Shown: piece by piece, positions 5,061 to 54,634 of the stretch
Numbering within the stretch: the first letter of the stretch is position 1
How the letters are laid out: every line of letters begins with the position of its first letter
NCBI RefSeq assembly: GCF_035084215.1
Contig: NW_027139559.1
Span: forward strand, 6,510,001 to 6,574,000
Direction: 5' to 3'
DNA length: 64,000 nt
DNA from: Heptranchias perlo
Lineage: Eukaryota
Position numbers and translations under genes: made by a program
The notes under the pieces: generated by a model
Seen by the model: the letters and a program-made list of their open reading frames with translations, nothing else
The model's database searches: none
Told to the model about the DNA's origin: nothing

Positions 5061-5620
5061 ATGCTAAGCAGGAGCTCCAGGAGAAGTGAAGATGCGGCAG
5101 TAAATTACGAGAACAGTAATGCAGTGAAAGGTAGTTTACAAAACTAACAGCTGGATATAGAGGCTTATCAACAATAGCATCATCATCGGGGAGTAGACAG
5201 TAAACGGGAAGAACAGTATCACAGTGAAACACGTGTTATAGAATTAATAGCTGATGTCGAAGTTACCAGGGACACCAACAGCAGCGAGGAGGGGATTGTA
5301 ATTTACAAGAACCGTAATACAGTGAAACATGGCTTGGAGAATTAATAGTTGGATATAGGATATAGATGATTACCAGTGAAACCAATAGAAGCGAGGAAGG
5401 AATTGTAAATGACAATAATAATAATACAGTGAAACCTGTTTTCTAGAGTTAATGGGTGAATATAGAGACTAACCAGGCGCGGCAACAAGAGCAAGGAAGG
5501 GGAAGTAAATGAGAAGAACAGTAATACAGTTGAACATGGTTTAGGGAATTAATTATATCGAATATTACCAGGGAAACCTGCAACAGCGAGGATGGGATAG
5601 TAAATCTTTTGAATAATCCG
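5060..5620 (-). repeat. Degenerate ~100-bp tandem copies of the GPCR exon 1 3' end plus splice donor
   Basis: Units start near 5064, 5165, 5262, 5370 and 5470, followed by the real junction at 5565-5617. The 5262 copy reads YNPLLAAVGVP-G/GT on the minus strand. Confidence 0.8.
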
Positions 5621-5749
5621 AAGTGCCAAATATATCCGAACAGCAAATCTTAATCCATCATAATTTGCAGAAAGATAATCAAACTCCCAGGAGAAACTCC
5701 TGCCCATTGTTGTAACATTCCAATCTACTGTCCTCAGATTATGGCCCAT
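5569..5749 (-). CDS. Exon 1 of a third GPR139/GPR142-like orphan GPCR (exon 2 expected left of the window)
   Basis: MGHNLRTVDWNVTTMG...RIIQKIYYPILAVAGFP-G followed by a phase-1 GT donor (5568-5567). Same IYYxILxxxGxP-G/GT end as the other two exon 1s. An upstream in-frame ATG exists at 5869. Confidence 0.8.
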
Positions 5750-5882
5750 TCTTGTCACTTTCCAATTTACTGATCTCAGATTCAGACGCTTTCTCCCACT
5801 CTCTGCAGAGCCGCTGATCACTGTTAAGGTCGGAGGTGGTACTTCAACTGACAAAATGGGATAACACATTGCAAGGAGCTCC

Positions 5883-5891
5883 TTATTTATA
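5883..5891 (-). promoter_or_regulatory. Putative TATA box of the minus-strand GPCR
   Basis: The minus strand reads TATAAATAA, about 140 bp upstream of the ATG at 5749. A comparable TATA lies upstream of the 43336 gene. Confidence 0.45.
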
Positions 5892-6254
5892 GCAAAGGGA
5901 AACTCTCCAGTGAAACAATTAAGGCCATTGGAGGCTGACTTGAATTACAGTCACTGAATAAACAGGTTCAGTTAACGCCTTTCAACCCAATACATTTTAT
6001 ATCACAACATATATTTATCCACGTATTTCACAGTTGTAAATCTAAAAGCTCAGCACATTATTTTAATTAATATTTGGAGAGCAGAAACTATGCGACCCGC
6101 AATCTGAGAGCATCGGTGTGAAGCGAGAGCAGCTTCAATTACAGATTGCAGATTATTTCTGAACGTGATTTATTAATTAGTTTCAGTTAGTCTCTACCCA
6201 TTTCTATAGAGTTGGGTTTACACTCAGAGATATAAACAGAATCATTTTACCAGT

Positions 6255-6850
6255 CAGCCTGAAGACCACCCTGACAATATTGGTGTAATCTCTGGATACC
6301 CCATCAATATTGGGAAATCAACGGATTATCTTGCAAATATTGGTACAGTCTCTGGGTCTACCTTTAAGTATCGGTAAATTTATGGATTGTACTGTATATA
6401 TTCGCATAGTCTATGGGTCACCCTGCAAATATTCCTGTAAACTACGATAAAGGCTCTGGATAATTCTGAAATTATTGGGCCATCTCATGATTTCCCATTA
6501 TTATTGAAACATCTCAGGATAATCCCCCAAAATATTGGCACCATTATTGCATCACTCTCTAAATACTAACACACTGTCTGCATCCCATGTAAATATTAGT
6601 CCAGTCTCTCCACGCAGAGTGAATTTCAGTGCAGTCTATGAATCTATTTGTAAATATTATTTTTGTTCTGGATCGATTTGCAATCGTTGTAGAGTGTGTG
6701 TTTCCCCTGAGATACGAATTATAGCCTTACCCTCTCATTAATTAATAGCAAGAACTCTGTAGCCTTTGCAAATATTGGTAGAGTCTCTACGTTTTCTCCT
6801 TATATAATTGAACACTAACTACATCCATTCTAAATATTGGTGCATTCCAT
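6255..6850. repeat. Highly degenerate ~30-bp satellite (CCCTGCAAATATTGGTACAGTCTCTGG-like)
   Basis: Recurring AAATATTGG..AGTCTCT motif at roughly regular spacing. Confidence 0.6.
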
Positions 6851-6904
6851 CAGACTATAGGGACTGACAGAAAGTGTAGTCTCCACGCTACACCGATAAA
6901 GATG

Positions 6905-8660: not shown

Positions 8661-8769
8661 TCATCTAAAACCCTTCTTTTCTAACCAGTATTGTGTGCGG
8701 CATTGCTGTCGTCGCAGCAAGACTACCGTATCTGATGTGTGGTGCAGTGTTCGTACAGTGGTTACACAC

Positions 8770-15734: not shown

Positions 15735-17412
15735 TAAGGAATCTTAGAACACCAGGTTATGGTCCAATAATTTTATTTTAAAATCACAAACTTTCAGAGA
15801 TTATCCCCTTCGTCAGGTGAGTGAGTGAATAAGAGGTTCTCAAATTGCATATCTTATATTAGGCTGGGACACCATCACACCAATCAAGAGGTGTCGTTAG
15901 TGTTCAGACAGGTTAGCCACGGAAAACAGTAGTTCCCAGTATGCTGAATACACATTGTGTCAAATTAGACTGACAGAGAGAAAGAGACCCAAAAGGCAGA
16001 GAGAGAGAGAGAGGGAATATTAAAAACAGATAACTTTTTTCCCCTTGCTGGTGGGGTTACGTGTAGCTTGACATGAACCCAAGATCCCGTTTGAGGCCGT
16101 CCTCATGGGTGCGGAACTTGGCTATCAATTTCTGCTCGACGATTTTGCGTTGTCGTGTGTCTCGAAGGCCGCCTTGGAGAACGCTTACCCGAAGATCGTT
16201 GGCGGAATGTCCTTTACTGCTAAAGTGTTCCCCGACTGGGAGGGAACCCTCCTGTCTGGCGATTGTTGCGCGGTGTCCGTTCATCCGTTATCGCAGTGTC
16301 TGCATGGTCTAGCCAATGTACCATGCTCCGGGGCATCCTTTCCTGCAACGTATGAGGTAGACAACGTTGGCCGAGTCACAGGAGTATGAACCATGTACCT
16401 GGTGGGTGGTGTCCTCTCGTGTGATGGTGGTATCTGTGTCGATGATCTGGCATGTTTTGCAGAGGTTGCCGTGGCAGGGTTGCGTGGTGTCGTGGAAGCT
16501 GTTCTCCTGAAATCTGGTTAATTTGCTGCGAACGATGGTCTGTTTGAGGTTGGGTGGCTGTTTGAAGGCGAGTATTGGAGGCGTGGGAATGGCCTTCGCG
16601 AGGTGTTCGTCGTCATCGATGACATGTTGAAGGCTGTGGAGAACATGGCGTAGTTTCTCCGCTCCTGGGAAGTACTGGACTACGAAGGGTACTCTGTTGG
16701 TTGCGTCCCGTGTTTGTCTTCTCAGGAGGTCCATGCGATTCTTCGCTGTGGCCCATCGGAACTGCCGATCGACAAGTCGAGCGTCATATCCCGTTCTGAC
16801 GAGGGCATCTTTCAGCGTATGTAGGTGTCCATCGCGTTCCTCCTCGTCTGAGCAGATCCTGTGTATCCGCAGTGCCTGTCCATAGGGGATGGCCTCTTTG
16901 ACATGGTTGGGGTGGAAGCTGGAAAAGTGGAGCATCGTGAGGTTGTCCGTGGGCTTGCGGTAGAGTGAGGTGCTGAGGTGCCCGTCTTTGATGGAGATTC
17001 GTGTGTCCAAGAAAGAAACTGATTCTAAGGAGTAGTCCATGGTGAGCTTGATGGTGGGATGGAACTTGTTGATGTTTTCGTGTCGTCTTTTCAGTGATTG
17101 TTCACCGTGGGTCCGTAGGAAGAAAATGTCGTCGATGTATCTGGTGTATAGTGTTAGTTGGAGGTCCTGTGCAGTGAAGAAGCCCTGCTCGAACTTGTGC
17201 ATGAAAATGTTGGCGTATTGGGGTGCGGATTTGGTCCCCATGACTGTTCTGTGTGTTTGGGTAAAGAACTGGTTATCGAAGGTGAATATATTGTGATCCA
17301 GGATGAAGCGGATGAGTTGTAGGATGGCGTCTGGAGATTGGCTGTTGTTGGTGTTGAGTACTGAGGCTGTTGCAGCGATGCCGTCATCGTGGCGGGATAC
17401 TGGTGTAGATTG
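15735..17412 (-). mobile_element. Penelope-like retroelement, 5'-truncated: RT + GIY-YIG endonuclease + 3' terminal repeat
   Basis: RT motifs MGTKSAPQYANIFM, RYIDDIF, FLD and YRKPT. GIY-YIG region NVVYLIRC..C...YIG, then RMNGHR and VGEHF. A premature stop follows YIG. Confidence 0.93.
15784..15820 (-). ncRNA. Degenerate hammerhead ribozyme-like motif in the Penelope 3' repeat
   Basis: Minus strand TCAC-CTGACGA-A-GGGGA-TAA-TCTCT-GAAA-GTTT-GTGA. Confidence 0.55.
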
Positions 17413-17549
17413 CGGAAGCTTCACCCACAGAAAGAACTGGATGGATTGAGAAATTGCAGGAGGCACAATTGGAGATCCTCCCTGACAGCGCCTTAGTTTC
17501 AGGCCTTCAGTGACAGACCTGCAGAGAGTGATTGTTAGTGTTCCTTTGT

Positions 17550-17765
17550 TTGCAGCCTTGTCTCGGGTATCAGCACTCTCGCTTTTAAGTGATGAATGTC
17601 GTGAGTTCCAGGCTCACTGCGGAAACTTGAGCAAATTATCGAGGCTGACACTTTAGTGCCGTACTGAGGGAGTGCTGCACTGTCAGAGGGGACGATAAAT
17701 GGAGGCCCAGCCTGCTCTCAGATTGACGTGAAAGATCCCACGACAATGCTCGAAGAAGGGCAGGC
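17550..17765 (+). mobile_element. tRNA-derived SINE with a Deu domain (SacSINE1/DeuSINE-like), partial
   Basis: GTACTGAGGGAGTGCTGCACTGTCAGAGG...GACGTGAAAGATCCCA..GAAGAAG core, recognised from memory, preceded by a decayed tRNA-like head. Confidence 0.7.
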
Positions 17766-17769: not shown

Positions 17770-20700
17770 AGACCTGGAGCAATCAAGAATAAAGATATTT
17801 AATCGGAGGACGGCCAATTTCAGTGCGCTGAGAACGGATCTGGCCCGGCTCAATTGGAATCAAACATAAGCAGGCAAAACAGTAAACGAACAATGGAGGG
17901 CCTTTAAAGAGGAGAAGGCTCGTGTGGAGTCTAGGTAAGTTGTTAGAGGGTATTCTGAGAGACAGGATCTACGGGCATTTGGAGAGGCAGGGACTGATTA
18001 GGAACAGTCAGCATGGTTTTGTGAGAGGAAAATCATGTCTCACGAATTTGATTGAGTTTTTTGAAGGGGTAACCAAGAAGATAGATGAGGGCTGTGCAGT
18101 CGACGTAGTCTACATGGACTTTAGCAAAGCCTTTGACAAGGTACTGCATGGTAGGTTGTTACATAAGGTTAAATCTCACGGGATCCAAGGTGAGGTAGCC
18201 AATTGGATACAACATTAGCTTGACGACAGAAGACACAGGGTGGGTGTAGAGGGTTGTTTTTCAAATTGGAGGCCTGTGACCAGCGGTGTGCCTCAGGGAT
18301 CGGTGCTGGGTCCGCTGTTATTTGTTATTTATATTAATGATTTGGATGGGAATTTAGGAGGCATGGTTAGTAAGTTTGCAGATGACACCAAGATTGGTGG
18401 CATCGTGGACAGTGAAGAAGTTTATCTAGGATTGCAACGGGATCTTGATAAATTGGGCCAGTGGGCCGATGAATGGCAGATGGAGTTTAATTTAGATAAA
18501 TGTGAGGTGATGCATTTTGGGAGATCGAATGGGGCCATTTCCTACTCCGTTAATGGTAGGGCGTTGGGGAGAGTTATCGAAGAAAGAGATCTCGGAGTAC
18601 AGGTTCATAGCTCCTTGAAAGTGGAGTCACAGGTGGATAGGGTGGTGAAGAAGGCATTCAGCTTGCTTGGTTTCATTGGTCAGAACATTGAATACAGGAG
18701 TTGGGATGTCTTGTTGAAGTTGTACAAGACATTAGTAAGGCCACACTTGGAATACTGTGTACAGTTCTGGTCACCCTATTATAGAAAGGATATTATTAAG
18801 CTAGAAAGAGTGCAGAAAAGATTTACTAGGATGCTGCCGGGACTTGATGGTTTGACTGATAGGGAGAGTTTAGATAGACTGGGACTTTTTTCCCTGGAGA
18901 TTAGGAGGTTGAGGGGTGATCTTATACAAGTCTATAAAATAATGAGGGGCATAGATAAGGTAGATAGTCAAAATATTTTCCCAAAGGTAGGGGAGTCTAT
19001 AACGAGGGGACATAGATTTAAGGTGAGAGGGGAGAGATAAAAAAGGGTCCAGAGGGGCAATTTTTTCACTCAAAGGGTGGTGAGTGTCTGGAACGAGCTG
19101 CCAGAGGCAGTAGTAGAGGCGGGTACAATTTTGTCTTTTAAAAAGCATTTGGACAGTTACATGAGTAAGATGGGTATAGAGGGATATGGGCCAAGTGCAA
19201 GCAAATGGGACTAGCTTAGTGGTATAAACTGGGCGACATGGACATGTTGGGCCGCAGGGCATGTTTCCATTTTGGAAACTTCTATGATTCCCACGAGGAG
19301 GAAAGGTAGCGCAAGCAAAGATAGAGCTCCTTGGATGACGAAAGAGATAGAGAGTAAGATGAAGCAGAAAATAGGCTGTATGACAATGTCTTGTTGATTA
19401 GGCCAGAGATAACAGGCTGAATGTAGAAAGTTCAGAGTAGAAGTGAAATTGGAAATAAGAAGGGCAAAGAGAGAGTAGGCGAATAGACTGGCGGCTCACA
19501 TAAAAGAGAATCCAAAAGACTTCTATTGGCATATAAACATTAAACTGGCAGCAAGAGGAGGGATGGGGCCTATTTGGGATGAAAAAGGAAGGAGTTCTAA
19601 CCATGGAGGCAGAGGGCATGGTTGAGGCACTAAGTGAGTACTTTGCATCTGTCTTTACCAAGGAATAAGATGCTGCTCAAGTCACGGTAAAAAAGGAGTT
19701 AGTTAAGATATTGGCTGGGGTAAAAATTGATACCAGAAATGGTGGCTGTGCTTAAAGTAGATAACTCATCCGGTCCGGGTGGATGCATCCGAGGTTTCTG
19801 ATGGAAGTAAGGGTGGAAATTGCAGAGGTATTGGCCATATTCTCCAATCCCCCTTGGATACATGGGTGCTGCCAGATGACTGAAAAATTGAAAATGTTGC
19901 AATCGTGTACAAAAAACGGTGTAAGGATAAACCCGGCAACTACAGACCAGTGAGTTTAACCTAGGTGGTGGGGAAACTTTTAGAAACGATAACCCGGGAC
20001 AAAATTAATAGTCGCTTGGACAAGTGTGGATTAATAAAGAAAAACCAGCACTGATTTGTTAAAGGCAAATCATTTTTAATTAATTTGGTTGAGTTCTTTG
20101 GATCAGATAACAGGGATGGTTGATGAGGGCAATGCGGTTGATGTTGTGCCTATTGAGTTCCAAAAGGCGTTTGATAAAGTGCCGCATAATGGGCTTTTCA
20201 ACAAAATTGAACCCCATGGAACAAAAGGGGCAGTGGCAGCATGGATACGAAATTGGTGAAGTGACAGGAAACAGAGAGTAGTGGTAAATGGCTGTTTTTC
20301 GGGTTAGAGGAAGGCAGACAGTGGTGTTCCCCAAGGGCCGGTACGAGGCACACTGCTTTTTTGATATATATGAATGATTTGAACTTGGGTGTACAGGGCA
20401 CAACTTCAAAATTTGCAGGTGACACAAAATTTGGAAGTGTAGTGTTCAATGAGGAGGATAGTAATAGACTTCAAGAGGACAGAGACAGGCTGCTGGAATG
20501 GGCGGACAGATGGCCGATCAAATTTAACGCAGAGAAGTGCGAAGTGATGCATTTTGGCAGGAAGGGCGAGGAGATGCAATATGAACGAAATGGTACTAAT
20601 CTAAGGGGGTGCAGGAACCGAGAGACATGGGGGCTTATGTGCACAAATCTTTCAAGGTGGCGTGACAGGTTGAGAACGTGATTAAACAAGCATACGGGAT

Positions 20701-24090: not shown

Positions 24091-24648
24091 TGTATACCTG
24101 TAAGAAGTCTAGTGGTGTAACAATATTTGTAAAGGACGAGGCAAATGGAGATAATATTTGTAGGAAGTCTCCAAGCTGACCACTGATAAGGTTCAAATTC
24201 GAAGTGTGAAAATTAAGCCCGATCCTGAGAAGGGAACATTAAATCTCTTGACCTCCAATATTAATTGGTATTTGAGAGTAACATGGTCTATAATTGGAGG
24301 TACTCTCAATTCACATCAGTGCTATCAGACTGTAGGTTTCACATTCTCTGATATTCCCAGTAACCAATAAAATAATATTCTCCGATTTGAGGAATTTCAA
24401 TTAACATCGGTGAAATATCTCATGAAAATAGAAATGCATCTGAAAAATTATTGCTATGAAATGACCGAACTTAATATGTTTGTTCAATAACTAATTCATG
24501 TCTGTCTCTATGGAACCAAAGTGTCTCTCGGGAGCTTTCCATTGACTATTAATAGGAGAACCATTTCACTGGGTTATCTATTAGTGCCTGTCGGAGCATC
24601 GCCTCCAGCACACAACAGGGATAGGTGAATCTCACAGAGATCTAAAGA

Positions 24649-24742
24649 ATGATTCCGAATCTCCAAGTACAGTATCGGATACTCGTTGCACTTTGGGATA
24701 TACAAAGGATTTACTATCCTATACTGACTGCTGGAGCTCCGG
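24649..24742 (+). CDS. Exon 1 of orphan GPCR A (joins 33046-33944)
   Basis: Hand-translated MIPNLQVQYRILVALWDIQRIYYPILTAGAP-G, then a GTAAGT donor at 24743. Phase 1 fits the acceptor at 33045 (G+TT = Val). Confidence 0.8.
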
Positions 24743-33045: not shown

Positions 33046-33944
33046 TTAATTTAGTGACGATTGTGATCCTGTCTCGGGGAAAGTGCGGTCTCTCCAAATG
33101 TGTCACTCGCTACCTGGTGGCCATGGCAGCGGCGGATCTACTGGTCGTTATCATCGATCTGATATTGAGGCAAATTCCTATTACGTTTCATTCTCTGTTT
33201 GTTTTTGTGCTGGAAATTAAAGTCTGCCATATCCACGCCGTCCTTCTTTACGCAGCCACAGACTGTTCTGTCTGGTTCACCGTCACTTTCACCTTTGATC
33301 GATTTGTGGCCATTTGCTGTCAGAGGTTGAAAACAAAATATTGCACCGAGAAAACGGCGGCTGTGGTTTTAGCAACAGTGACTGTGCTATTCTTTTGTAA
33401 AAACTTAAGCTTTTACTTTACGTATACAGGCCAATATCTACTTGTCAATGAACCCCGATTTTGTTTTGTAACATTCAGTGTTACATATTCACAGATGTGG
33501 AGAGCAATTGAATTCCTATATTATGTTCTAACCCCGGGGGTCCCATTTGTTCTAATTCTGCTGCTCAATGGTTTAACCGTCAGACACATTTTAGTGGCCA
33601 ACAAAGGCCGCAGGAGACTCATGGGCCACAGCAGTGGGGAGATTCACAGAGACCCAGAGATGGAGAATCGAAGGAAATCCATAATTTTACTGTTTCTTAT
33701 CTCGGGGAATTTCATCCTGTTATGGGCTGTGTTTGTGGTATATTCACTGTGGAGACGATTGTACTATTTGGGGTATGATAATGTATTTCCACCACAATAT
33801 GTATTAGAAATAGGATTCATGCTCCAGCTCCTGAGTTGCTGCACAAATACCTCTATTTATGCAGTGACCCAGACTAAATTCAGAGAGCAGTTCAAGAGTA
33901 TGGTGAAATATCCATTTACTTTCATTGTTAATTCCATTAAATAA
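33046..33944 (+). CDS. Exon 2 of orphan class A GPCR A (GPR139/GPR142-like); 330 aa when spliced
   Basis: Polypyrimidine tract with AG at 33044-33045, seven-TM pattern, YLVAMAAADL (TM2), SVWFTVTFTFDRFVAIC (TM3) and NTSIY (TM7); frame open to the stop. Confidence 0.93.
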
Positions 33945-38229: not shown

Positions 38230-40930
38230 GGGCCAGAGGGACAGGATTAGACCATTCTGCCCTTCCAGCCTGCTCCGCCATTTATTTCGATCATTGCAGA
38301 TCTGTACCTTTAAGAAAAAAGCACAGAAGAAAGAAGGAGGGTCTCCTCGAGCCTGCTCCGCCTTTCAATAAGATCATGGCTGATCTTCGACCTCCACTTT
38401 CCCGCTCGATCCCCATATCCCTTGATTCCCTTAGAGTCAAATAATATATCGATCTCAGCCTTGAATATACTGAACGACTGAGCATCTACAGCCCTCTGTG
38501 GTCGAGAATTACAAAGATTCACAACCCTCTGAGTGAAGAAATTTTTGGTCCGCTCAGTCCTAAATGGCCGACCTCTTATCCTGAGAATATGATCCCTAGT
38601 TCGAGCCTCTCCAGCCAGGGGAAACATCTTCTCAGTATCTACCCTGTCAAGTCCGCGAAGAATTAAAAATGTTTCAATGAGATCACCCATTGTTCTTCTA
38701 AACTCCAGAGAATATAGGCCCATTCTACTCAATGTCTCCTCATAGCACACCCCTCTCAACTCAAGAATCAATCTACCCACCCTTTGTTGCGCCGCCTGGA
38801 AGGCAAGTATATCCCTCCTCAGTTAAGGAGATCAAAACTGTACGCAGTACTCAAGATGTGGCCCAGCTAGTGTACTATACAGTTCTAGCATAACCTCCCT
38901 GCTCTTATATTATCTGCCTCGGCTAAGAAAGAAATGTATCCCGTATGCCTTTTTAACAAACTTATCTACCTGTCCTGCGACCTGCAGGGATCTGTGGGCA
39001 TGTACTCCAAGGACCCTCTGTTCCTCTACACCACACAGTATCCTCCCATTTATTGTGTATTCCTCCGCCTTGTTTGTCCTCCCCAAATGCAATATCTCAA
39101 ACTTCTCCGGGTTGGATTCCATTTGCCACTTTCTTGCCCACCTGACCAGTCCATTGATATATTCCTGCAGTCTACAACTTTACCACTCAATATCAACCAC
39201 ACTAGCAATTTTTGAATCATCTGCAAACTTTTTAATCATGCCACCTGCATTTAAGTCTAAATTATTAATACATACCACAATAAGCAATGGAGCTCGTACT
39301 GAGCACTGCGGAACCCCACAGGAAACAACGTTCCAGTCACAAAAAAATACGTCGACTATTCCCCTTTGCTTCCTGCCACTGAGCCAATTTTGGATCCAAC
39401 TTGCCACTTTCTCTTGGATCCCATGGGCTTCCACTTTTCTAAATTTCCCTTCACAAATCCATGTTGACTAACCTTGATTAATCCGTGCATTTCTAAATGA
39501 CAATTAACACTGTCACTCAGAATTGTTTCCAATAATTTGCCGATCACCGTGGTTATGTTGACTGTCCTTTAATTAGTCGGTCAATCCCTTTCTCACCCTT
39601 TAAACAACGGTACAATAATGGAAGTCCTCCAATCCTCCGGCACCACGCCTGGAGCCAGGGAGAATTGCAAAATGAAATGCATCCCGTGCAGCCTCCGATA
39701 TTTCATTCCGTGCTTCTCTTAACACCATTGGGTACATTTCATCCGGGCCTGGCGATTTATCAACCTACAAAGTTGCTAAGCCCCTTAATATTTCCTCCTC
39801 CATTATGTTTACCCAATCCAATATTTCACATTCCTCCTGCTTAACAATGTCTGCATCGTCCCTCTCTTTTATGACGACAGACACAAAGTATTCATTAAGA
39901 ACCATACCCACACATTCTGCCTCCACACACAGTTTACCTTTTTAGTCTCCAATAGGTCCTACTCTTTCCTTCGTTATCCTCTTGATCTTTCTGCATTTAT
40001 GAAACTTTTTGGGGTTTTCTTGATTTAACTGGCCAGTGTTTTTTTCGTGCCTTCTCGTTGCTTTCTTAATTTCCTTTTTAATTTCAACCTTGCACTTTCG
40101 ATACTCCTTTCGGCTTTCTGCAGTACTGAGCTCTCGGCATCGAACATAAGCTTCCCTTTACTGTTTCAACCTACTCTGTGTGCTTTTTGACATCCAGGGG
40201 GCTCTCGATTTAGCAATCCCAACCTTTTTCTTTGTGGGAACATATCTGCTCTGAATCCCTCACTAACTCCCGCTTGAAAGCCTCCCACTGCTCTGGACAC
40301 TCATTTAACTTCAATGAGCCGTTTCCAGTCCACTTTTGTTAAATCACTTCTCAGCTGAGTAAAATTGGCTTTTCCCCTCGTTGAGAACTTTTGCTCCCGT
40401 TCTATCTTTGCCCTTTTCCATAACTATGCTAAAGCTAACTGAATTATGATCACTACCATCAAAATGGTCTCCCACTGATACTCTTACCATCCTCCCAGCT
40501 CCACTCACTAAAACTAAATCCTGAACTGCCCCCTCTCTTGCTGGAATTTCTACGTAGTGGCTACAAATGATCCCCTGAATGAATTTTATGAATTGTGCAC
40601 CCTCTGTATCTTTTACACTGATTCTATCCCAGTTAAGATTAGAGCAGCTGAAATCCCCGACTATTACTGCCCTATTTCATTTGAACTTCTCTGAAATTTG
40701 TCAACATATTTGCTATTCTATCTCCCTCTGACTGTTTGGAAGTCTATAATACACTCCCAGCAGTGTGACTGCCGCTTTTTTGTTCTTCAGCTCAACCCAT
40801 ATTGCCTCATTTGATGATCCTTTGATCATAACATCCCTCCTTACAGCTGTAATTGCTCTTTAACCAATATTGTCACCACCATCCTTTTTACCCCACTCCA
40901 TCTCGTCTGAATACGCTGTTGCCAGACCTC
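38230..40930 (-). mobile_element. Composite decayed CR1 LINE fragments (endonuclease to 3' UTR)
   Basis: GLYSLEFRR, KFADDSKI, GVPQCSV and QHGFVKG; an endonuclease-like remnant lies near 40400-40900. Confidence 0.88.
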
Positions 40931-40934
40931 ATTG

Positions 40935-42880
40935 TCCATCGATGTCTGGTCAGTATTCTGTTCCCAGCCCTCAATGTCTATCGATGCCCGGTCAGTATTC
41001 TTTTCCCATTCGACAATGTCTATAGATGTCCGGTCAGTATTCTGTTGTCAGCCCTCATTGTCCAAATGTCCGGTCAGTATTCTGTTCCCAGCCTTCAATT
41101 TCTATCGATGTCCGGGCAGTATTCTGTTCCCAGCCCTCACTCTCTATCGATGACCGGTCAGTATTCTGTTCCCAGCCTTCAATTTCTATCGATGTCCGGT
41201 CAGTATTCTGTTCCCATCCCTCACTCTCTATTGATGTCCGGTCAGTATTCTGTTCCCATCCCTCACTCTCTATTGATGTCCGGTCAGTATTCTGTTTCCA
41301 GCCCTCACTCTCTATTGATGTCAGATCAGTATTCTGCTCCCAGCCCTCACTCTCTATTGATGTCCGGTCAGTATTCTGTTCCCAGCCCTCACTCTCTATC
41401 GATATCCGGTCAGTATTCTGTTCCCAGCCCTCGCTGTCTATCGATGTCCGGTCAGTATTCTGTTCCCAGCCCTCACTCTCTATCGATATCCGGTCAGTAT
41501 TCTGTTCCCAGCCCTCACTCTCTATCGATATCCGGTCAGTATTCTGTTCCCAGCCCTCGCTGTCTATCGATGTCTGATCGTCAGTGTGTTCCCAGCTCTC
41601 ACTTTCAATCGATGTCCTTTCTGCAGCCTTTTCCCAGCCCTCACTCTCTATCGATGTCCGGTCAATATTCTGTTCCCAGCCCTCACTGTCTATCGATGTC
41701 CGGTCACTATCCTGTTCGCAACTCTCACTATCTATTGATGTCCGGTCAGTATTCTGCTCCCAGCGCACACTGTCTGTCGGTGACCAGTTAGTTTCCTGTT
41801 AACTGCCCTCCATGTCGATCGATACCCGATCATCAGCCTGTTCCCTGCCCTCGCTCTCTATCGACGTCTCGTCGTCAGTCAGTTCCCTTCCATCACTCCC
41901 AATCGATGTTTGGTCATCAGACTCGACCCTGCCCTCACTCTCAATCGATGTTCGGTCATCGGTCAGTTTCCAGCGCTCACTGTCGATCGATGTCCTGTCA
42001 TCAGTCTGTTCCCAGCCCTAACTCTCTATCGATGTCCGGTCAGTATTCTGTTCCCAGCTCTCACTCTCTATTCATGTCCGGTCAGTATTCTGTTCCCAGC
42101 TCTCACTCTCTATTCATGTCCGGTCAGTATTCTGTTCCCACCTCTGACTCTCTGTTCATGTCCGGTCATCGGCCCGTCCCCAGCTCTCTCTGTCTATTGA
42201 TATACTGTCATTAGCCGATCCCCAGCTCTCTCTGTCTATCGATATCCGGTCATCAGCCTGTCCGCAGCTTTCTCTGTCTATCGATATCCGGTCATCAGCC
42301 TGTCCCCAGCTCTCTCTGTCTAATGATATCCGGTCATCAGTCTGTTCACAGCCCTCACTGTCTTTCAATGTCCGGTCAGTGTTCTATTACCAACCCTCAC
42401 TGTCTATCGAGGTCCGGCCATCAACCTGTTCCCAGCCCTCATTTTCAATCGATATCAGGTCAGCAGTCTGTTACCAGCCCTCACTTTCTATCGATGTCCG
42501 GTCTGCAACCTGTTCCTAGCCCTCACTCTCCATCGATATTCGGTCATCAGCCTGTTCACAGCCCTCACTGCCCATCGATGTCCGGTCATCAGCCTGTTCG
42601 CTGCCCTCACTGCCCATCGATGTCCTGTCTGCACCCCGTTCCCTGTCCTCGCTGCCTATCGATGTCCGGTCTGTAGCCTGTTCGCAGTCCTCGCTGCCCA
42701 TCGATGTCCGGTCTGTAGCATGTTTCCTGCCCTCATTGTCTTTTGATGTCCGTTCTCCAGCCTGTTCCCAGTCCTCAATGTCTACCGATGTCCGGTCAGA
42801 AGACTGTTCTCAGCCCTCAATGTCTATCGATGTCTGGTCAACTGTTTGTTTCCTGCCCTCAATATCCCACTTTAATCCGG
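40935..42880. repeat. 42-bp minisatellite (GATGTCCGGTCAGTATTCTGTTCCCAGCCCTCACTCTCTATC)
   Basis: About 45 copies. The 14-aa periodic ORFs on both strands are repeat artefacts. Confidence 0.95.
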
Positions 42881-43243
42881 TAACCACAGTTTGAAGAGTA
42901 CCCCACATCCCAGAATTGAGTAGAACAGCCCTGAGAAGGACACTCTAACATTTGAAATTTAATTACTGAATGAACACAGCTGAGTGAAGGACCTCACCAA
43001 AACAATATGAGATCGAGATGAAGGAACACCATCATTGCTCTCAGAATACAGCTAATAATTTTCATTAGTTAATTAATATTATCAAAATTGTGCAGTCTTT
43101 GGGTTTTCCAATTCAATCCCAGCACGAAATGTATTCTCTCACAATAGGGACTGAGATCGGCTGTAGCAACCTGTTTGTTCAGATAAGTAAAACTAATTTG
43201 AACGATGCTGCAACCTCAAGTCCCCACTGAATATACCACAGGA

Positions 43244-43253
43244 TATAAATTAA
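43244..43253 (+). promoter_or_regulatory. Putative TATA box of GPCR B
   Basis: TATAAATTAA about 90 bp upstream of the ATG at 43336. Confidence 0.5.
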
Positions 43254-43335
43254 AGGCTCTGGGAAAGTATCGCCTCAGAGTTTAAATCAAAGAGATTGCC
43301 TGCAGCACGAAGGGACAGATTACTTCACACTGAAA

Positions 43336-43402
43336 ATGGGTGCAACACTTTACAGCGTCGAGAAAATATACTACATGATCCTTGCCGTCATTGGTGTGCC
43401 TG
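43336..43402 (+). CDS. Exon 1 of orphan GPCR B (joins 53724-54634)
   Basis: AAAATGG start context, hand-translated MGATLYSVEKIYYMILAVIGVP-G and a GTAAGC donor at 43403. Phase 1 fits the acceptor at 53723 (G+TG = Val). Confidence 0.88.
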
Positions 43403-43699
43403 GTAAGCGAATATCACCATTTAAGTTGTGTGAATCTCTGAGTGAGCTGTCCTCTGGTTTTACTCTGTAATTGATAAAGTTATATGCTGGTCGAGTGGTG
43501 AGCATTACACAGTTAGCGGTACAGTGATATCATTTCAATAAATCAGATGTCATATTTGTTCACGATCCTTACCTTATCTCAATATAAATATTTCAGCTGA
43601 AGTCTCATGGTTAAGTTACAGGATCAAATTATTACCTTCAGTGGATGGTTGTGGAAATTTGAAGCTGCATTCAGTGCTGTCAAATGTCCGGGGATGTTT

Positions 43700-44225
43700 A
43701 TTACTGGGAGCGTCTGTCACTGCAGAATTTTACTGAGTGTGGGTCACTAACTGGAGTGGAACACCTGACCCCAGTGACCAATTATTACTGGGAATGTGTG
43801 TCAGTGTAGAATTGTACTGAGTGTGGGTCACTAATCGGAGTGGGACACCTGACCCCAGTGACCATTTATTACTGGGAATGTGTGTCAGTGTAGAATTGTA
43901 CTGAGTGTGGGTCACTAACCGGAGTGGAACAACTGACCCCAGTGATCATTTATTACTGGGAGTATCTGTCAGTGTAGAATTGTACTGAGTATGAGTCACT
44001 AACCGGAGTGGAACAACTGACCCCAGTGATCATTTATTACTAGGAGTGTGTGTCAGTGTATAATTGTACTGAGTGTGGGTCATTAACCGGAGTGGGAGAC
44101 CTGACCCCAATGACCATGTATTACTGGGAGTATCTGTCAGTGTACAATTATACTGACTGTGGGTCATTAACCGGAGTGGGAGACCTGACCCCAGTGATCA
44201 TTTATTACTATGAATATCTGTCAAC
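43700..44225. repeat. 84-bp minisatellite with an internal GGTCACT/AGTGACC inverted pair
   Basis: About 6 copies; period measured from 43787 to 43871. Confidence 0.9.
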
Positions 44226-44954
44226 TGTTTATCAATGTTGGTCCTAAGAAACACTTCCTCGTGTCAATACTAAAGTTCCCCGATGATACTCCTGATTCTG
44301 ATTCCTCTGGTCTTGAAGCATTGATGCATCTGTGAATTTTGTCCTCACTTTCCTTCTCCCTCGATTTATCTGATCTGGTGCTGCTCGGTCGCATCTGTGA
44401 TGCCTAATTTTGAGCCTGAAGAGACTGCCAAACTATGTCTGTATTTCACTCAGTGATCTAGGGAGGGTGCAGACTTAGATTGGGTATTAATTCCTCCTTT
44501 CTCAGAAATAATCCTCGAGTCATACCTGGACCTCCAATATTCACTATCATTCCGCTGCCTTCATTTAACCTCCTATTGAGCTTCAGTATGAATGATGTTG
44601 TTTTATTGCCTAGAATTACATCGAATCTACAGCGCAGGGACAGACGATTCGGCCCAAGAAATCCATGCCGGTGTTTATAATCCACACGAGCATCTTCCCT
44701 TCCTATTTCATCTCACCCGATCAGCATATCCTTCTATTCATTTCTCCCATATGTGTTCATTTAGCTTCCGCTTAAATACATCTATTCTAGTCGCCTCAAC
44801 GACTCCAATCTGCCATATTGCGGTCTACACACAATCCTTTCAAAATCCTGAAATCAGACCAACCAGAAGCAACAGGCCAAGGTAAACCTGTCAAATTTCT
44901 GCCTAGTCTCGGTAATGAGATAAACTGTCTGAACACAAGTACACTTTTACACTT

Positions 44955-45575
44955 GCACGCTAACCAGTCACACGCTAACCATTCACACCCTAACTAGTCA
45001 CACGCTAACCAGTCACAGTCTAAACATTCACACGCTGACCTGTCACACGCTAACTAGTCACACGCTAACCATTCGCACGCTAACCAGTCACACGCTAACC
45101 AGTCACGCCCTAACCAGACACACGTTATCCAGTCACAGCCTAACCATTCACACGCTGACCTGTCACACGCTAACTAGTCACACGCTAACCATTCGCACGC
45201 TAACCAGTCACACGCTAACCAGTCACGCCCTAACCAGACACACGTTATCCAGTCACAGCCTAACCATTCACACGCTAACCTGTCACACGCTAACCTGTCA
45301 CACCCTAACCATTCACACGCTAACCTGTCACACGCTAACCAGTCACAAAATAACCAGTCAAATGCGAACCAGTCACAACCTAATCATTCACACGCTAATC
45401 AGTCACACGCTTACCAGTCATCAGCTAACCAGTCATAGCCTAACCATTCACACGCTAACCTGTCACACGCTAAACAGTCACACCTGAACCAGTCACAATC
45501 TTAACCAGTCACACCCCAACCGGTCACAACGTAACTAGTCATATTCTAACCAGTCACATTCTAACCAGAAACATT
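44955..45575. repeat. 15-bp minisatellite (CACGCTAACCAGTCA)
   Basis: About 40 copies with a higher-order block repeat. Confidence 0.93.
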
Positions 45576-45639
45576 CACACATCACTCATCTCCATCCAGC
45601 TTCATAGAATCAAAGTGAATACAAACCTGATCAAGGCGC

Positions 45640-47570
45640 AGAATCCCAAAGACCAAGCCCCTTCCCATTAAGTCCAACTGTACAGAACCACAATGAACAA
45701 ACCCCTTCCCATTAACTCCCATTGTACAAAATCCCAAATGAACAAACTCCTTCCCATTCACTACCGCTGTAGAAAATCACAGTGAACAAACCCCTTCCCA
45801 TTAATTCCCACCGTACACAATCCCAATGAACAAACCGCTTCCCATTCGCTCCCACTGTAGAGAATCGCAATAATTAAACACCTTCCCATTCACTCCCACT
45901 GTACAGAATCACAATGGCACAAACCCGTTCCCTTTCACTTCCACTGTGCAGAATCATAATGCAACAAACCCCTTTCACATTCACTCGTACTGTACAGAAT
46001 CCTAATGACCAATCACCTTCACATTCACTCGTACTGTACAGAATCCCAATGACCAAACCCCTTCCCATTCACTCCCACTGTACAGAATCACAATAACACA
46101 ACATCTTCCTATTCACTCCCATTGTACAGGATCACAAAGGACCAAACCCCTTCTCATTCACTCGAATTGTACAAAATCCCAATGACCAAACTCCTTCCCA
46201 CTCAATCCCACTGTACAAAATCAAAATGACCAAACATCTTCAAATTCACTCCCATTCTATATATTCCCAATGAACAAACCCCTTCCCATTCACTTCCACT
46301 GTACAGAATCCGAAAGGACCAAACCCCTTTCCATTCATTCCCACTGTACAGAATCCCAATGACCAAAACCGCTTCCCATTTGCTGCCACTATACAGAATG
46401 CAAATGATCAAATCCCTTCCCATTCACTCCCACTGTACAGAATTACAAAGACCTAACACCTTCTGATTAACTCCCAATGTAGAGGATCCCAATGACCAAA
46501 CCCCTTCCCATTCACTCCCACTTTACAAAATCCCAATGTCCTAACCCCTTCCCATTCCCTCAAACTGATCAAAATCCCAATGACCAAACATCTTCCCATT
46601 CATTCCCACTGTACAGGATCCCAACGAACCAAACCACTTCCCATTCACTCCCACTGTACAGGATCCCAAAGGACCAAACCACTTCCCACTCACTCCCACT
46701 GTACAGAATCACAAAGGACCAGCCCCTTCCCATTCACTCCCAATGTACATACTGTCAATGACCAAACCACTTCCCATTCACTCCCGCTGACCAGAATCCC
46801 AATGGGACAAACCCCTTCCCATTCATTCGCACTGCACAGAATCGCAATGACACAAAACCTTCCCATTCACTCCCACTGTGTAGTATCCCAAAGGAACAAA
46901 CCCATTCCAAATCAGTCCCACTCTAACGAATCTCAATCGACCAAACGCCTTCCCATTCACTCCCACTGCACAGGATCCCAACGAACCAAACCACTTCCCA
47001 TTCACTCCCACTGTACAGGATCCCAAAGGACCAAACCACTTCCCACTCACTCCCACTGTACAGAATCACAAAGGACCAGCCCCTTCCCATTCACTCCCAA
47101 TGTACATACTGTCAATGACCAAACCACTTCCCATTCACTCCCGCTGACCAGAATCCCAATGGGCCAAGCGCCTTCCCATTCACTCGTACTTCCCATTCTC
47201 TTCCACTGTAAAACATTCCAATTACCAAACATCTTCACATTCACTCCCACTGTACAGAATCCCAAAGGACCAAACCCCTTCCCATTCGCTCCCACTCTAC
47301 AGAATCCCAATAACCAAACCCCTTCATATTCACTCCCAATATACAGAATCCAAATATGTCAATCCACTTCCCATTGACTCGCAATGTCCAGAATCCCAAT
47401 GTGTCAAACCCCTTACCATTCACTCTCTTTGAACTGAAAGTCAATGGACCAAAGCGCTTCCCACTCACTCCATTATATGGGATACCAATGAGTGAACCCT
47501 CTTCCCATTCACTCTCGATGGACTAAACCCACTCCATTCAATGCATTGCACAGATTCCCAATGGCATCAG
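45640..47570. repeat. ~43-bp minisatellite (CCCTTCCCATTCACTCCCACTGTACAGAATCCCAATGACCAAAC)
   Basis: About 45 copies. The block at 46591-46806 is repeated at about 46950-47163. Confidence 0.95.
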
Positions 47571-48109
47571 AATATCAATTGAACTGCACCAGCTGAAACT
47601 AATGTTAACTATTTACTAACAGATAGAAAGCAGGACAGCAGTTTTACAGTATTCAAAGTTTGTTTATAATGACTTATTCTTTCTCAATGTATAGTTACTG
47701 CAAACACTTTAGTTGTGTTGGTGCTGATTAGTCCCTTTGCCCCGATGCGGCCCTGACAGTTTGTGGGTCATGACTGTTCAAATTTATGACCTTGCTTTTC
47801 CACAGGCTGAATGTTGGTCTGTGGTTATTGATTCGCCCACTCGTGTAACTGATCAAGGTTTAATCAACCAGTTCTTATACTTGATTCAGAGTCTCAGCAC
47901 ATGCAACCTACACCGATCCATGCCCTTAGCTCAGTGAGGTCTGTTCCTGTGAGGAGAGACACGTATTACTGAAGAACAAACATATTGGGTTTCCATAATA
48001 CAGAGATCTGTCGGGGGCAGTAAATAATAAATTAGTAAACTCTTCATAGTTAAATAAATAGTGCACTGCTTCAATAAATTAATCACTTCAATATCTGCAA
48101 CATTATAAA

Positions 48110-48540
48110 ATGACTGGTGACTGTGATCAACTAATACTCATGGTGTTTAATGACAGGTGACTGTGATTAACTAATACTCATATTGTTTAATGACTGGTGA
48201 CTGTGATTATCTAATATTCATGTTGTACAATGACCGGTGACTGTGATTAACTAATACTCATGTTGTTTAATGACTGGTTACTGTGATTAACTAATACTTA
48301 TGTTGTTTAATGACAGGTGACTGTGATTAAATAATACTCATATTGTTTAATGACTGGTGACTAATTAACCAATATGCATGTTGTTTAATGACTGGTGACT
48401 GTGATTAACTAATACTTATGTAGCTTAATGACAGGTGACTGTGATTAACTAATACTCATGCTGTTTAATGACAGGAGACTGTAATTAACTAATACTCATG
48501 TTAGTTAATCACAGTCAGCAGTCATTAAACAATACTCATG
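48110..48540. repeat. 40-bp minisatellite (TGACTGGTGACTGTGATTAACTAATACTCATGTTGTTTAA) ending in an inverted unit
   Basis: About 10 direct copies; 48501-48531 is a reverse-complement copy. Confidence 0.92.
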
Positions 48541-48699
48541 ATGTTAAATCAAATTGTTAAATTATTATTTGAGATTGCTCAGTTGCTCTCGTCTCAGATC
48601 TCTCGCCCTTTTTCTGGATCTGAATCTTCATCCATTGTTTCGTTCTGACCCGACGCTCCGAGGACATACGACACTTCGTTCCAGATTTTCATTTTAAAA

Positions 48700-50670: not shown

Positions 50671-51129
50671 TTTCTGCCCCTTTCATTCCTTCTCTCTGGT
50701 CCGAAGACCAGTAAACTTGTGCTCCCCTCAAACTCACAGGGGATGGGATCATACCTGCCAGAGAGCAGACACCGAAAACTTACCCACAACCTTCCCCCGC
50801 TGGTATATTTGGGGGGCCTCACTTCTAGTCTATTGGTTCAGTTTCTTTTACTTACTGTTCCGCTCAAACTCCACGCCCTCTCATGATGTTTTATTTTACT
50901 TCACTTGCATCTATTTCATTTAAACAATGCACGATCAGTTTTTTTTTACACATTGAAATGACAAGACCTTGCTTTCATATACAACAAAAATATTCCCCAT
51001 TTTGGGCAGGGTCCAGGGTTAGGACGCTAAACACAGCGACTCTGGGCTGGGAAGGAAGAATCGTCTCAGGTTCCAGCTCATGATCCCTGTGCAGTAAATC
51101 TGCCGCAAAGTGCAGGTGTATGGGGTGAG

Positions 51130-53660
51130 AACACTAGGATATGTCCACACTCATATAATTACTGTCCGAGATGAGGAGAACACAGATAACACCACACGCT
51201 CAGAATTACTGACTGAGACCAGGACAACACGGGATATCCCCACATCCTCCCTGCCTGGCCTCACGAGAACACTGGAACTTTCCCAAATTCACATGCTTAT
51301 TCTCTGTGCCCAGCAGAACGCTGGGATATCTCCACACTCACATCCTTACTGTCTGTGCTCAGCCGAACACTGGGGTATCCCCACACTCACACAATTGCTG
51401 GCTGTGCACAGGAGAACACTGGGATATCCACAAGTTCCACAAGCCCACTGCTTGTTCCAGGCGAGCAGTGTGATATCCCAACACTCACATACTCACTGTC
51501 TGGGCTCAGGAGAACACTGGGATATCCCCACGCTCACATACTTACTATCTGGGCTCAGAAGAGTACTGGGATATCTTCACACTCGCATCCTTACTGACTG
51601 GGACCAGGCTGGACAGGTGGAAGGAGTATCAGTGGGAGAGCATTTTGGTGGTAGTGATCAAAATTCAGTTAGTTTTAGTATAGTCATGGAAAAGGATAAA
51701 TATAGAACGGTAGTAAAAGTTCTCAATTGGGGAAAGGCCAGTTTTACTAAGCTAAGAAGTGATTCAGCAAACGTGGACTGGAAACAGCTATTCGAAGTAA
51801 ATCAATGTCAGAGAAGTGGGAGGCATTCGAGGGGCCGAATCAAAGGGTTCAAAGTAAACATGTTTGCACAAAGAAAAAGGGTGGGGCTGCCACATCCAAA
51901 GCCCACTGGATGTCAAGGAGCAGGCAAGGTAAGATAGGGCAGAAAAAGAAAACTTATGTCAGACACCGAGAACTCAATACTACAGAAAGCCTTGAGGAGT
52001 ATAAAAAGTGCAGGGGTGAAATTAAAAAAAGAAATTTGGAAGGTAAAGAGAGGGCAAGTAAAATCAAGCTATTTTTGTGACTGGACGGCTGTTTCCGGTG
52101 GGGTTCCGCCGGGCTGAGTATTAGGTCCCTTGCTTTTTGTGGTATATATTAACGCTTTGGACTTAATGTAAGGGACATGATTCAGAAGTTTGCGGATAAA
52201 GCAAAAATTGGCCGTGTGGTTGATAGTGAGGAGAAAAGCTGTCGACTGTAGGAAGATATCAGTTGTTTGTTCAGGTGGGCAGAAAAGTGGAAAATGGAAT
52301 TCAATCTGGAGAAGTGTGAGGTAATGCATTTGGGGAGATCAAACAAGGCAAGGGAGCACACAATAAATGGAAGAATACTGAGAGGCCTAGAGGAACAAAG
52401 GGACCTTGGTGTGCATGTCCACGAATCCCTGAAGGTAGCAGGACAGATTATTAAAGTGGTTAAGAAGACATATTGGACACTTTCCTTTATTAGCCGAGGC
52501 ACAGAATAAAAGAGCAGGGAGGTTTTGCTGGAACTGTATAAATCATTGCTTAGGCCACAGCTTTAGTACTGTGTAGGGTTCTGGTCATCACATTACATGA
52601 AGGATGTAATTGCACGAGAGGATTTACGAGGTGGTTGCAAGAACTTGGAGAGTTTTAGCCATTAGGAAAGATTGGATTGGGTGGGGTTGTTTTCTTTTGA
52701 ACAGAGGAGGCTTAGGTGAATACATTTATAGGGAGCCGAGATAAAATGGAAAGGAAGGACCTATTTCCCTTTGCAGAGAGGTCAATAACCAGGGGGCATA
52801 AATTTAAACTAATTGGATTGGACGGGAGCTGAGGATTTTATTTTTTCACCCAGAGGGTGGTGGGGGAACTGGAACTCACTGCCTGAAAGACTGGTAGAGG
52901 CGTAAAATCTCAACTCATTTCATAAGAACCTGGATATGCAATTGAATTGCCGGAACCTACAGGGCTACGGACCAAGTGCTGAAAAGTGGGATTAGGCCTG
53001 GAAGCTCTTTTTCAACCGGCATAGACACGGTGGCACAAATGGCCTCCTTCTGTGCCGTAACTTTTTCTTTGTTTCTATGTTTCAAACACTGCATTACCCT
53101 CACACTAACATACTCACTGTCTGGACTGAGGAAAACACTGGGATACGCCTACACTCACATACTTACTGTCTGGGCTCAATGAACACTGGGATATCCCCAC
53201 ACTCACATACTTACTGTCTGGTCTCAGGAAACACTGGGATATGCCCACACTCACATACTTACTGTCTGGTCTCAGGGAACACTGGGATATCCCACACTCA
53301 CATAGTTACTGTCTGGGCTCAGGAAACACCGGGATATCCCCACACTCACATACTTACTGTCTGGGCTCAGGGAACACTGTGATATCCCCACACTCACTTA
53401 CTTACTGTCTGGGCCCAAGACAACACTGGGATATCCCCACACTCACATACATACTGTCTGGGCTCAGGGAACGCTGAGATATCCCCACACTCTCATACTT
53501 ACTGTCTGGGCTCAGGGAACACTGGATATCCCCACACTCACATATTTACTGTCTGGGCCCAGGACAACACTGTGATATCCCCACACTCACGTACTAACTG
53601 CCTGGGCTGAGAACACTGCAGTATTCCAAAACTCATATACTTACTGTGTGGGCTCAGTCA
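51130..53660. repeat. ~48-bp minisatellite (ACTGGGATATCCCCACACTCACATACTTACTGTCTGGGCTCAGGGAAC) interrupted by a CR1
   Basis: Arrays at 51130-51600 and 53090-53660. Confidence 0.9.
51600..53080 (+). mobile_element. Internally deleted CR1 LINE inserted in the 48-bp array
   Basis: VGEHFGGSDQNSVSF (endonuclease end), then a jump to the RT C-terminal part WAEKWKMEFNLEKCEVMHLG and the 3' UTR. Confidence 0.88.
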
Positions 53661-53723
53661 CGGAGAATGGCCCGTTGAGTTTGAGCAGTAATTTCCAATC
53701 CCTTTTCCTTCTTATTCTTACAG

Positions 53724-54634
53724 TGAATTTAATTGCGATTGTGATCCTATCCCGGGGAAAGTGCGGTCTCTCCACCTGCACCATTCGCTACCTGGTGGCG
53801 ATGGCAGCGGCGGATCTACTGGTCATTATCACTGAGGTAGTATTAACTCGGATCAATTATTATTATTTCCCAATATCTTTCCTGGAGATCACCCCTGTGT
53901 GTAGTGTTATCGCTGTTCTGACTCGTGCAGCCACAGACTGTTCTGTCTGGTTCACCGTCACTTTTTCCTTTGATCGATTTGTCGCCATCTGTTGCCAGAA
54001 GCTGAAAACTAAATATTGCACCGGGAAAACTGCGGCTGTGGTTTTAGCGACAACCTGCATTCTGCTCTGTTTGAAAGACGTTCCCTTCTACTTGACGTTT
54101 GAACCTGTTTCGATAATCGACAACTTACCATGGTTCTGCAATTTAAAAACAAGCTATTTTACCGAGCCCGGATGGGTGAGCTTTAACTGGATTGATACGA
54201 TTTTAAACCCATTGCTCCCATTCACCTTAATTTTGTTGCTCAACGCTCTGACAGTCAGACACATTTTAGTGTCCAGTCGGGTTCGTAAGGGACTGAGGGG
54301 TCAGAACAAGGGAGACAATCGCAATGACACAGAGATGGAGAGTAGGAGGAAGTCTGTGATTTTACTCTTCGCCATATCCGGCAGCTTCATACTTCTGTGG
54401 CTGACAACTGTTGCAGATTTCTTATATTATAACATTGCAGGAACAAGTCCCCGAGATTATAATGATTCTTTATTTACCCTTCAACAAGTCGGATATATGC
54501 TTCAGAATTTATCATCCTGCACAAACACATTTATTTATGCGGTGACTCAGTCCAAATTCAGAGAGCAGTTCAAAAGCGCGGTGAAATATCCTGTGACCTT
54601 AATTACCAAATTAATTAATTATAATAATAACTGA
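53724..54634 (+). CDS. Exon 2 of orphan class A GPCR B (GPR139/GPR142-like); 325 aa when spliced
   Basis: Acceptor CTTATTCTTACAG ends at 53723. Motifs YLVAMAAADL, SVWFTVTFSFDRFVAIC and NTFIY; frame open to the stop. Confidence 0.94.

Follow-up and report, generated by a model that had tools for sequence, protein, structure and literature searches.

Large clustered families with a selected ligand pocket and a conserved inner face are the established pattern of the OR, TAAR, V1R, T2R and MRGPR receptors. Passages of PMC10116579 credit cartilaginous fishes with 6–13 OR, 3–5 TAAR, 2–4 V1R and 8–43 V2R genes and explain the small shark repertoire as sensitivity traded for discrimination; passages elsewhere put their chemosensory receptor genes at ~54–65 (PMC6368271) and speak of a relative scarcity of GPCRs (G protein-coupled receptors; PMC8455134). 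Among orphan receptors, GPR210 is described as lying near GPR139 and GPR142, with three subtypes in coelacanth, gar and fishes (passages of Rinne et al. 2019, PMC6504862). Here we analyse a stretch of 64,000 nucleotides from Heptranchias perlo (the window; contig C1392, 6,510,001–6,574,000, in an assembly totalling 3.25 Gb) that carries class A GPCR genes of a different kind. As the initial annotation had proposed, they belong to a tandemly expanded family of cartilaginous fishes whose outer, ligand-facing half diversifies while its inner half is kept. Judged by its sequences, the family appears to behave like a chemoreceptor repertoire, but it belongs to none of the known families.

The window contains two complete two-exon class A GPCR genes, A and B, and exon 1 of a third, C. 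Three paralogues within 50 kb had been announced; A and B are complete, but only exon 1 of the third lies inside the window. Exon-1 candidates were recognised as GxP followed by G|GT ends (plus strand, 24742 and 43402; minus strand, 5569). Gene A consists of exon 1 at 24649–24742 (+; 31 codons plus 1 nt, donor GTAAG) and exon 2 at 33046–33944 (+), which runs from the second half of transmembrane helix (TM) 1 to the stop codon and matches Pfam 7tm_1 (E 5e-19); the spliced open frame is 330 amino acids. Gene B, with a spliced frame of 325 amino acids, has exon 1 at 43336–43402 (+; 22 codons plus 1 nt, donor GTAAG), matching the N-terminus of the named relative P0002, and exon 2 at 53724–54634 (+; 7tm_1 E 1e-20). 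The 7tm_1 scores of the A and B second exons are 74.4 and 69.2 bits against a cut-off of 30.5. Exon 1 of gene C (5749–5569, −) encodes the N-terminus and the first half of TM1 and ends in a phase-1 donor (GTAAT); the second exon is found outside the window, 2.7 kb to its left (C1392:6,507,292–6,506,394), and the spliced frame is 359 amino acids, counted from a start methionine inferred as the first ATG past the TATA box. All three genes have the predicted common phase-1 intron after GxP in TM1, bounded by GT..AG and leading into open frames, and the acceptor is at the same position in 137 of 139 intact family loci.

Receptors A and B are 55% identical overall. In the inner halves of TM1, 2, 3, 6 and 7 and in intracellular loops (ICL) 1–2 identity is 79–95% (identical residues: TM2 12/13, TM3 18/19, ICL2 10/12, TM7 9/11), and across the extracellular loops (ECL) and outer TM5 and TM6 it is 0–29% (ECL1 1/14, ECL2 7/28, outer TM5 2/12, outer TM6 4/14, ECL3 0/14). 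The motifs quoted in the initial annotation are present in both receptors, TM7 does read NTxIY instead of NPxxY, and the division into a conserved cytoplasmic and a variable outer half stands, except that ICL3 is variable as well (7/19). The description of the outer regions as barely alignable agrees with these identities but was overstated for ECL2, where an invariant cysteine is kept. The class A residues N1.50, D2.50, R3.50, P5.50, W6.48 and N7.49/Y7.53 occur in 64–65 of 65 family representatives where counted, and Cys3.25 and the ECL2 cysteine in all 65; P6.50 and P7.50 are absent from the family. An AlphaFold model of B exon 2 (pLDDT 78.7) has the class A helix layout with an ECL2 beta-hairpin at 126–141. 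Its best Foldseek matches are peptide receptors and GPR139, all at TM-scores of ~0.6–0.68 and not discriminating. The Pfam profiles of OR, TAAR, V1R, T2R and V2R were unmatched at E≤0.1, the one match besides 7tm_1 being weak and unrelated (E 0.028).

Protein searches of the genome gave 4,353–4,675 first-look candidates with 118–131 scored per search, and we therefore counted motifs. The exact TM3 motif has 2,050 matches genome-wide (726 and 1,324 from two sub-patterns; 1,025 per strand), a looser TM3 pattern with one mismatch 3,219, the independent TM7 motif 2,938 and the exon-1 donor motif 1,798; reversed-pattern controls gave 0 for each count. On contig C2, 58 of 63 TM3 matches were recaptured by the TM7 motif, and capture–recapture scales to ~3,190. 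Instead of a few copies genome-wide, the family thus has about 3,200 exon-2 loci. Among the matches listed, clusters lie near the ends of large contigs (C2, 0.1–7 Mb of 172 Mb; C3, 138–142 Mb of 143 Mb), across smaller contigs (C23, C38) and on many scaffolds of 3–12 Mb. These tandem clusters undergo birth and death, and the reading frames are mostly intact. Exon 2 is intact in 71 of 90 motif-picked loci, one of them reclassified as intact by eye: 25/30 on C2, 18/20 on C3 and 18/20 on C38, with 10 intact and 10 broken in a batch of 20 small-cluster and isolated copies. In the 264 kb around the window all seven exon-2 copies are open (five with a usable exon 1, one with a stop in exon 1 and one for which no exon 1 was found), as are all three family genes in a second contiguous 160 kb; of 30 exon-1 loci inspected, 29 have an in-frame ATG. 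Grouping the 71 intact motif-picked loci gives 67 groups at 98% identity and 32 at 90%. Of 3,848 candidates from the protein database (clustered at 90%), 2,398 are relatives at E≤1e-10; the 120 matches listed are all elasmobranch, 70 of them from Heterodontus, and the closest named ones are from Heptranchias perlo itself (96%).

Selection on the family is not uniformly purifying. In pairs below 97% identity, pairwise omega is 0.7–0.9 for the outer half and 0.3–0.45 for the inner half. We fitted site models written for this analysis (F3x4, fixed relative branch lengths; not PAML) to six subfamilies of 8–25 sequences. The outer and inner segments had been delimited by hand ahead of testing and are consistent with the modelled helices. 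Comparing M2a with M1a, twice the log-likelihood difference (2dL) was 308, 109, 35, 34, 11 and 215, with omega2 of 2.8–7.0 at 2–24% of sites. Outward-facing positions account for 64 of 70 selected sites (posterior >0.95) compared to 129 of 291 sites overall, and inner-only partitions gave omega of 0.27–0.42 with 2dL ≤4.6. With a separate tree for each half of the gene, five of the six subfamilies carried the signal in both halves (2dL ≥6.7). Null simulations of the largest subfamily, five replicates each, peaked at a 2dL of 2.5 for one tree and 18 for two. Selected sites are concentrated on the ECL2 hairpin (127–146), ECL1, ECL3 and the pocket positions 3.29, 3.32, 3.33, 3.37, 6.51, 6.58, 7.35 and 7.39. 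In one subfamily they include 3.32, 3.33, 6.51 and 7.39, which are GPR139 ligand positions; the GPR139 ligand residues given in passages of PMC5430874 and PMC12775434 are F3x33, H5x43, W6x48, N7x38, E3x32 and R6x51.

The family also shares a promoter motif. TGTTT[G/A]TTCA, which we take to resemble the forkhead consensus, is found with at most one mismatch 197–520 nt upstream of the donor in 32 of 36 first exons, and the exact 9-mer is present in eight of nine non-redundant upstream regions. One extended variant has 381 genome matches compared to 1 for the control, and family clusters contain many of the 100 listed. The motif of genes A, B and C is followed by a TAAT-like element and by a TATA box 70–73 nt on: gene A has TGTTTGTTCA at 24477–24486 (+) and a TATA-like box (TATTAA) at 24547–24552 (+), gene B TGTTTGTTCA at 43172–43181 (+) and a TATA box at 43244–43249 (+), and gene C TGTTTATTCA at 5955–5964 (−) and a TATA box at 5886–5891 (−). 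This arrangement supports real transcription units that would be under common control; it names no tissue. Upstream of a family gene on another contig (C49:20,393,493–20,393,852) the motif forms a 48-bp tandem array of at least eight copies.

Public databases label the family 'probable GPR139', and human GPR139 is its best sequence match in the PDB (E 1e-8). The true GPR139 of this genome, located by motif search, is a single locus on contig C25 (L021), 88% identical to the human protein and with its acceptor at the same TM1 position as the family; family members are 21–26% identical to GPR139 and GPR142. We built a careful tree (LG+G4, 34 rows) and a quick tree, which were similar in shape. 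A clade of the family with GPR139 was rejected (approximately unbiased test, p-AU 8e-57), as was a clade with both GPR139 and GPR142 (p-AU 1e-4; LG+G4, 34 rows). The 34-row tree supports the family itself at 90/73 only, places an amphibian–sturgeon lineage as its sister (100/100), and sets it in a wider clade with GPR139-like orphans of fish, coelacanth and amphibians (99/94). The family descends from a GPR139-related orphan lineage distinct from GPR139 and GPR142. On the evidence of these trees its members are cousins of the two receptors, not members of their group, and it probably derives from one GPR210 subtype, the match being by tree position and not by identifiers. The earlier view that the motifs fit the GPR139/GPR142 group is refined by the rejected clades, and TM7 reads NFFLY and not NTxIY in GPR139; with these two receptors in the phylogeny, no one-to-one orthology to known receptors was seen.

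In a profile search of 1.84 billion representatives, 29 of the 150 matches listed were looked up by name. Family members were seen in sharks, rays, skates and Callorhinchus, whose counterparts in salamanders, coelacanth and teleosts are more distant relatives. With a salamander protein as query, 20 amphibian clusters and one sturgeon protein were recovered. No distinct shark orthologue of the amphibian gene turned up: among 119 scored matches the best was 35% identical, and the matches listed for it sit in family clusters at 32–36% identity. Subfamilies in the trees mix sharks, rays and chimaera, suggesting that diversification began before those groups split. Two further loci with the same TM1 intron are each one clear best orthologue of another relative: L238 (C30:14.08 Mb) of the coelacanth type (62% to coelacanth) and L239 (C5:114.75 Mb) of the anchovy type (45% to anchovy).

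We lean towards reading the family as a chemosensory repertoire that would couple many external ligands to one shared signalling pathway. Its two-exon receptors keep their cytoplasmic face while diversifying the outer pocket under positive selection, and many ligands would feed one G-protein type. A forkhead and homeodomain promoter code may set one receptor-bearing cell type, and the site of action could be the nose, taste buds, skin, gill or gut. The predicted ligands are peptides or amino-acid derivatives. A peptide-like ligand is expected because of the ECL2 beta-hairpin with its TM3–ECL2 disulfide and the neuropeptide-receptor ancestry, and because the wider clade has been linked to protostome receptors for peptides with aromatic C-termini (passages of PMC8557429).

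Several observations weigh against this chemosensory reading or reduce its force. The same evolutionary signature marks immune and gamete-recognition families. Passages on a catshark 'brain & olfactory epithelium' library (PMC11979771) give 50 top genes without a GPCR, a list that would miss sparse V2Rs too, and O/E sites of the OR-promoter type are rare upstream of the family (2 compared to 0.33 expected), without convincing enrichment. Gene A has 12 copies, 97.1–99.7% identical in nucleotides across 3.9 kb and often situated ~21 kb away from a copy of B; they appear to be genuine segmental duplicates of recent origin. Only 21 distinct proteins are represented among the 30 best matches to A, and such near-identical copies mean that part of the count reflects recent segmental amplification and not new specificity. 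Between 1.3 and 9.0 Mb on contig C1317, eight match pairs are offset by exactly 3,999,424, and identity is 100% in both of two 10-kb pairs, so that a ~4-Mb block is probably a false assembly duplication; further false duplications may exist elsewhere in the assembly. Because at least one such block looks falsely duplicated, we estimate complete family genes at 1,000–2,500, a range inferred and not counted. As for selection, only two of five selected sites face outward in the smallest subfamily; it is also the weakest, and its result is not secure because a 2dL of 11 falls inside the range of the two-tree null. One of the M8/M8a fits failed. Synonymous divergence (dS) is 1.3–1.7 times higher in the outer half, where double-hit codons are also commoner (43/390 compared to 18/359); this is a hint of gene conversion or of multi-nucleotide changes, which can inflate site tests and may have raised omega to some extent.

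Of seven sequencing runs guessed to be RNA (5–15% of words), six gave contigs of many paralogues with intron-like sequence running into exon 2 and very deep cover of intronic repeats, with exon 1 uncovered and no exon–exon joint. They look like shallow DNA and are uninformative on expression.

The first alternative is innate-immune or barrier surveillance, in which the receptors, carried by leukocytes, mast-like cells or nerve endings of skin and mucosa, would detect microbial, parasite or venom peptides and play the part of mammalian FPRs and MRGPRs. We regard this as unlikely, though it accords with the strong positive selection on exposed loops (omega2 ~5) and with clusters near contig ends and on small chromosome-scale contigs. 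Moreover, according to passages of Tan et al. 2021 (PMC8455134), cartilaginous fishes lack MAS1 and its relatives, which would leave such a role open. Against it, immune-type sites (consensus patterns) were not enriched in the nine non-redundant upstream regions: ETS 3 compared to 8.8, NF-kB 0 compared to 0.4 and ISRE-like 1 compared to 0.3. To our knowledge, the known immune GPCR families are all smaller than the thousands of genes seen here.

Reproductive recognition, by expression in testis, sperm or oviduct or by sensing of pheromonal peptides under sexual selection, would likewise account for fast outer-face evolution and recent segmental amplification, and the wider receptor clade includes insect sex-peptide/MIP receptors (passages of PMC8514136 and PMC8557429). 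The subfamilies, shared by sharks and rays, are old rather than species-specific; we consider this alternative improbable.

Largely passive amplification, with a few functional receptors carried along by segmental duplication and the counts inflated by assembly error, is refuted as a full explanation and in our view highly improbable as the principal one. It draws on the A+B cassette, which recurs at ~21-kb spacing in seven of eight paired places, on the eight single-offset pairs and two identical 10-kb pairs of C1317, on the 10 of 20 broken loci in the small-cluster and isolated batch, and on pairs above 97% identity, in which the outer/inner contrast is absent. Passive copying does not predict inner-face purifying selection in every subfamily with positive selection on the outer face, nor the conserved promoter; among the 71 intact motif-picked loci 67 are over 2% apart, and other species hold many relatives (70 of the 120 listed are from Heterodontus). 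That the family consists of amplified GPR139/GPR142 orthologues sensing Trp and Phe is scarcely credible: the PDB match to human GPR139, the shared intron position, an invariant W6.48 (65/65) and His at 5x43 in 35/65 speak for it, but a separate single GPR139 exists, its clade with the family is rejected, identity is only 21–26%, and the ligand-anchoring residues are mostly not kept (Asn at 7.39, N7x38, in 4/65; F3x33 in 13/65; Glu at 3.32 and Arg at 6.51 outside the eight commonest residues).

Returning to the cluster itself, the neighbour D has an intact exon 2 at C1392:6,491,473–6,492,372 (−), for which neither an exon 1 nor the promoter motif was found in the 14 kb upstream examined; it could be an orphan exon or an alternative last exon spliced from gene C exon 1. 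Inside the gene C intron, at 5263–5465 (−), the end of exon 1 recurs as two degenerate tandem copies that carry donor-like sites, and pairs of such copies, also with donor-like sites, occur 100 bp apart on C23; their use as alternative donors is possible. The gene C N-terminus is lengthened by a 42-bp repeat (5702–5782, −), which adds an N-glycosylation sequon, and locus L189 has a longer version of the repeat. On the cytoplasmic face of the receptors (ICL1, the start of TM2, the end of TM3 and ICL2) five cysteines are near-invariant (gene B exon 2, 53762–54019), a possible metal or lipid attachment site. The open reading frame at 62784–63857 (+) has a partial Galactosyl_T match (PF01762, E 3e-30, profile positions 2–145 of 195) and is apparently a beta-1,3-galactosyltransferase-like gene or fragment beside the cluster. 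Reverse-transcriptase (RVT_1) fragments of retroelements lie at 16312–17613 (−) and 18219–19037 (+), and similar LINE-like pieces fill the introns and spacers of the cluster. Long minisatellite arrays at 8–5011, 40916–48549 and 56293–60699, have units of 15–133 bp, one of 32 bp being repeated 138 times; they border and interrupt the genes and may favour unequal exchange.

The family's sequences are publicly available under a wrong label, and as far as the searched literature goes the family is apparently undescribed. No description was found in the searched full-text literature, with subscription journals outside that search, nor in passages of PMC11979771, PMC10620051, PMC13320880 and 10.64898/2026.08.31.747588; GPR139 was unmatched in 24 supplement files of PMC8455134. 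Main-text passages of a tandem-gene survey of two batoids (10.1101/2025.06.08.657570) mention SUCNR1, V2R and Pcdh but not this family. The public gene model P0001 fuses an A-type fragment to a B-type gene via intron sequence; family annotation is unreliable. A positively selected family of at least 1,000 receptors challenges the small-repertoire picture of cartilaginous fishes, whatever the tissue. A sensory role would make it a new family of vertebrate chemoreceptors; an immune role would make it a GPCR repertoire that is encoded in the germline and exceeds in size any known to us. It is possible, and we put it forward tentatively, that the main chemosensory repertoire of cartilaginous fishes arose independently, from a neuropeptide-receptor-like orphan. 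This would be a new family rivalling or exceeding mammalian odorant receptors in size, sparsely expressed from a shared forkhead/homeodomain promoter, and would explain the keen smell of sharks with about ten ORs.

Compared with known systems, the family shares with GPR139 and GPR142 the class A fold, the phase-1 TM1 intron after GxP, Asn at 5.58, the missing Pro at 7.50 and W6.48. It differs in having Cys3.25 and the ECL2 cysteine, both absent in GPR139 and GPR142, in lacking Pro6.50, and in its longer ICL3 and variable pocket; GPR139 is single-copy here. Three lineages of the GPR210 kind were found. Two of them are each represented in the genome by one best orthologue; the third (amphibians, sturgeon) is sister to the family. 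The amphibian lineage, by contrast, looks like one conserved gene, 66–74% identical across orders, and passages of the GPR210 survey (PMC6504862) mention neither sharks nor any expansion. In protostomes, nematode srw and mollusc chemoreceptor-like genes have a chemosensory role. These expansions, derived from FMRFamide/MIP receptors, belong to the same deep supergroup according to passages of PMC8557429, and ESM Atlas neighbours of the family carry Srw/Srx families, but they are independent and of other phyla. In mammals, MRGPR and FPR are lineage-specific class A expansions from a peptide-type receptor, with outer-face selection and roles in skin, immune and vomeronasal sensing; they form an unrelated branch and number tens of genes compared to thousands. 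The OR, TAAR, V1R-ORA, T2R and V2R families are of other ancestry, and the family has no match to their Pfam profiles. The likeness is one of genome behaviour: tandem clusters, birth and death, a short N-terminus, coding sequence nearly all in one exon, a variable pocket with a conserved signalling face, and a common promoter motif.

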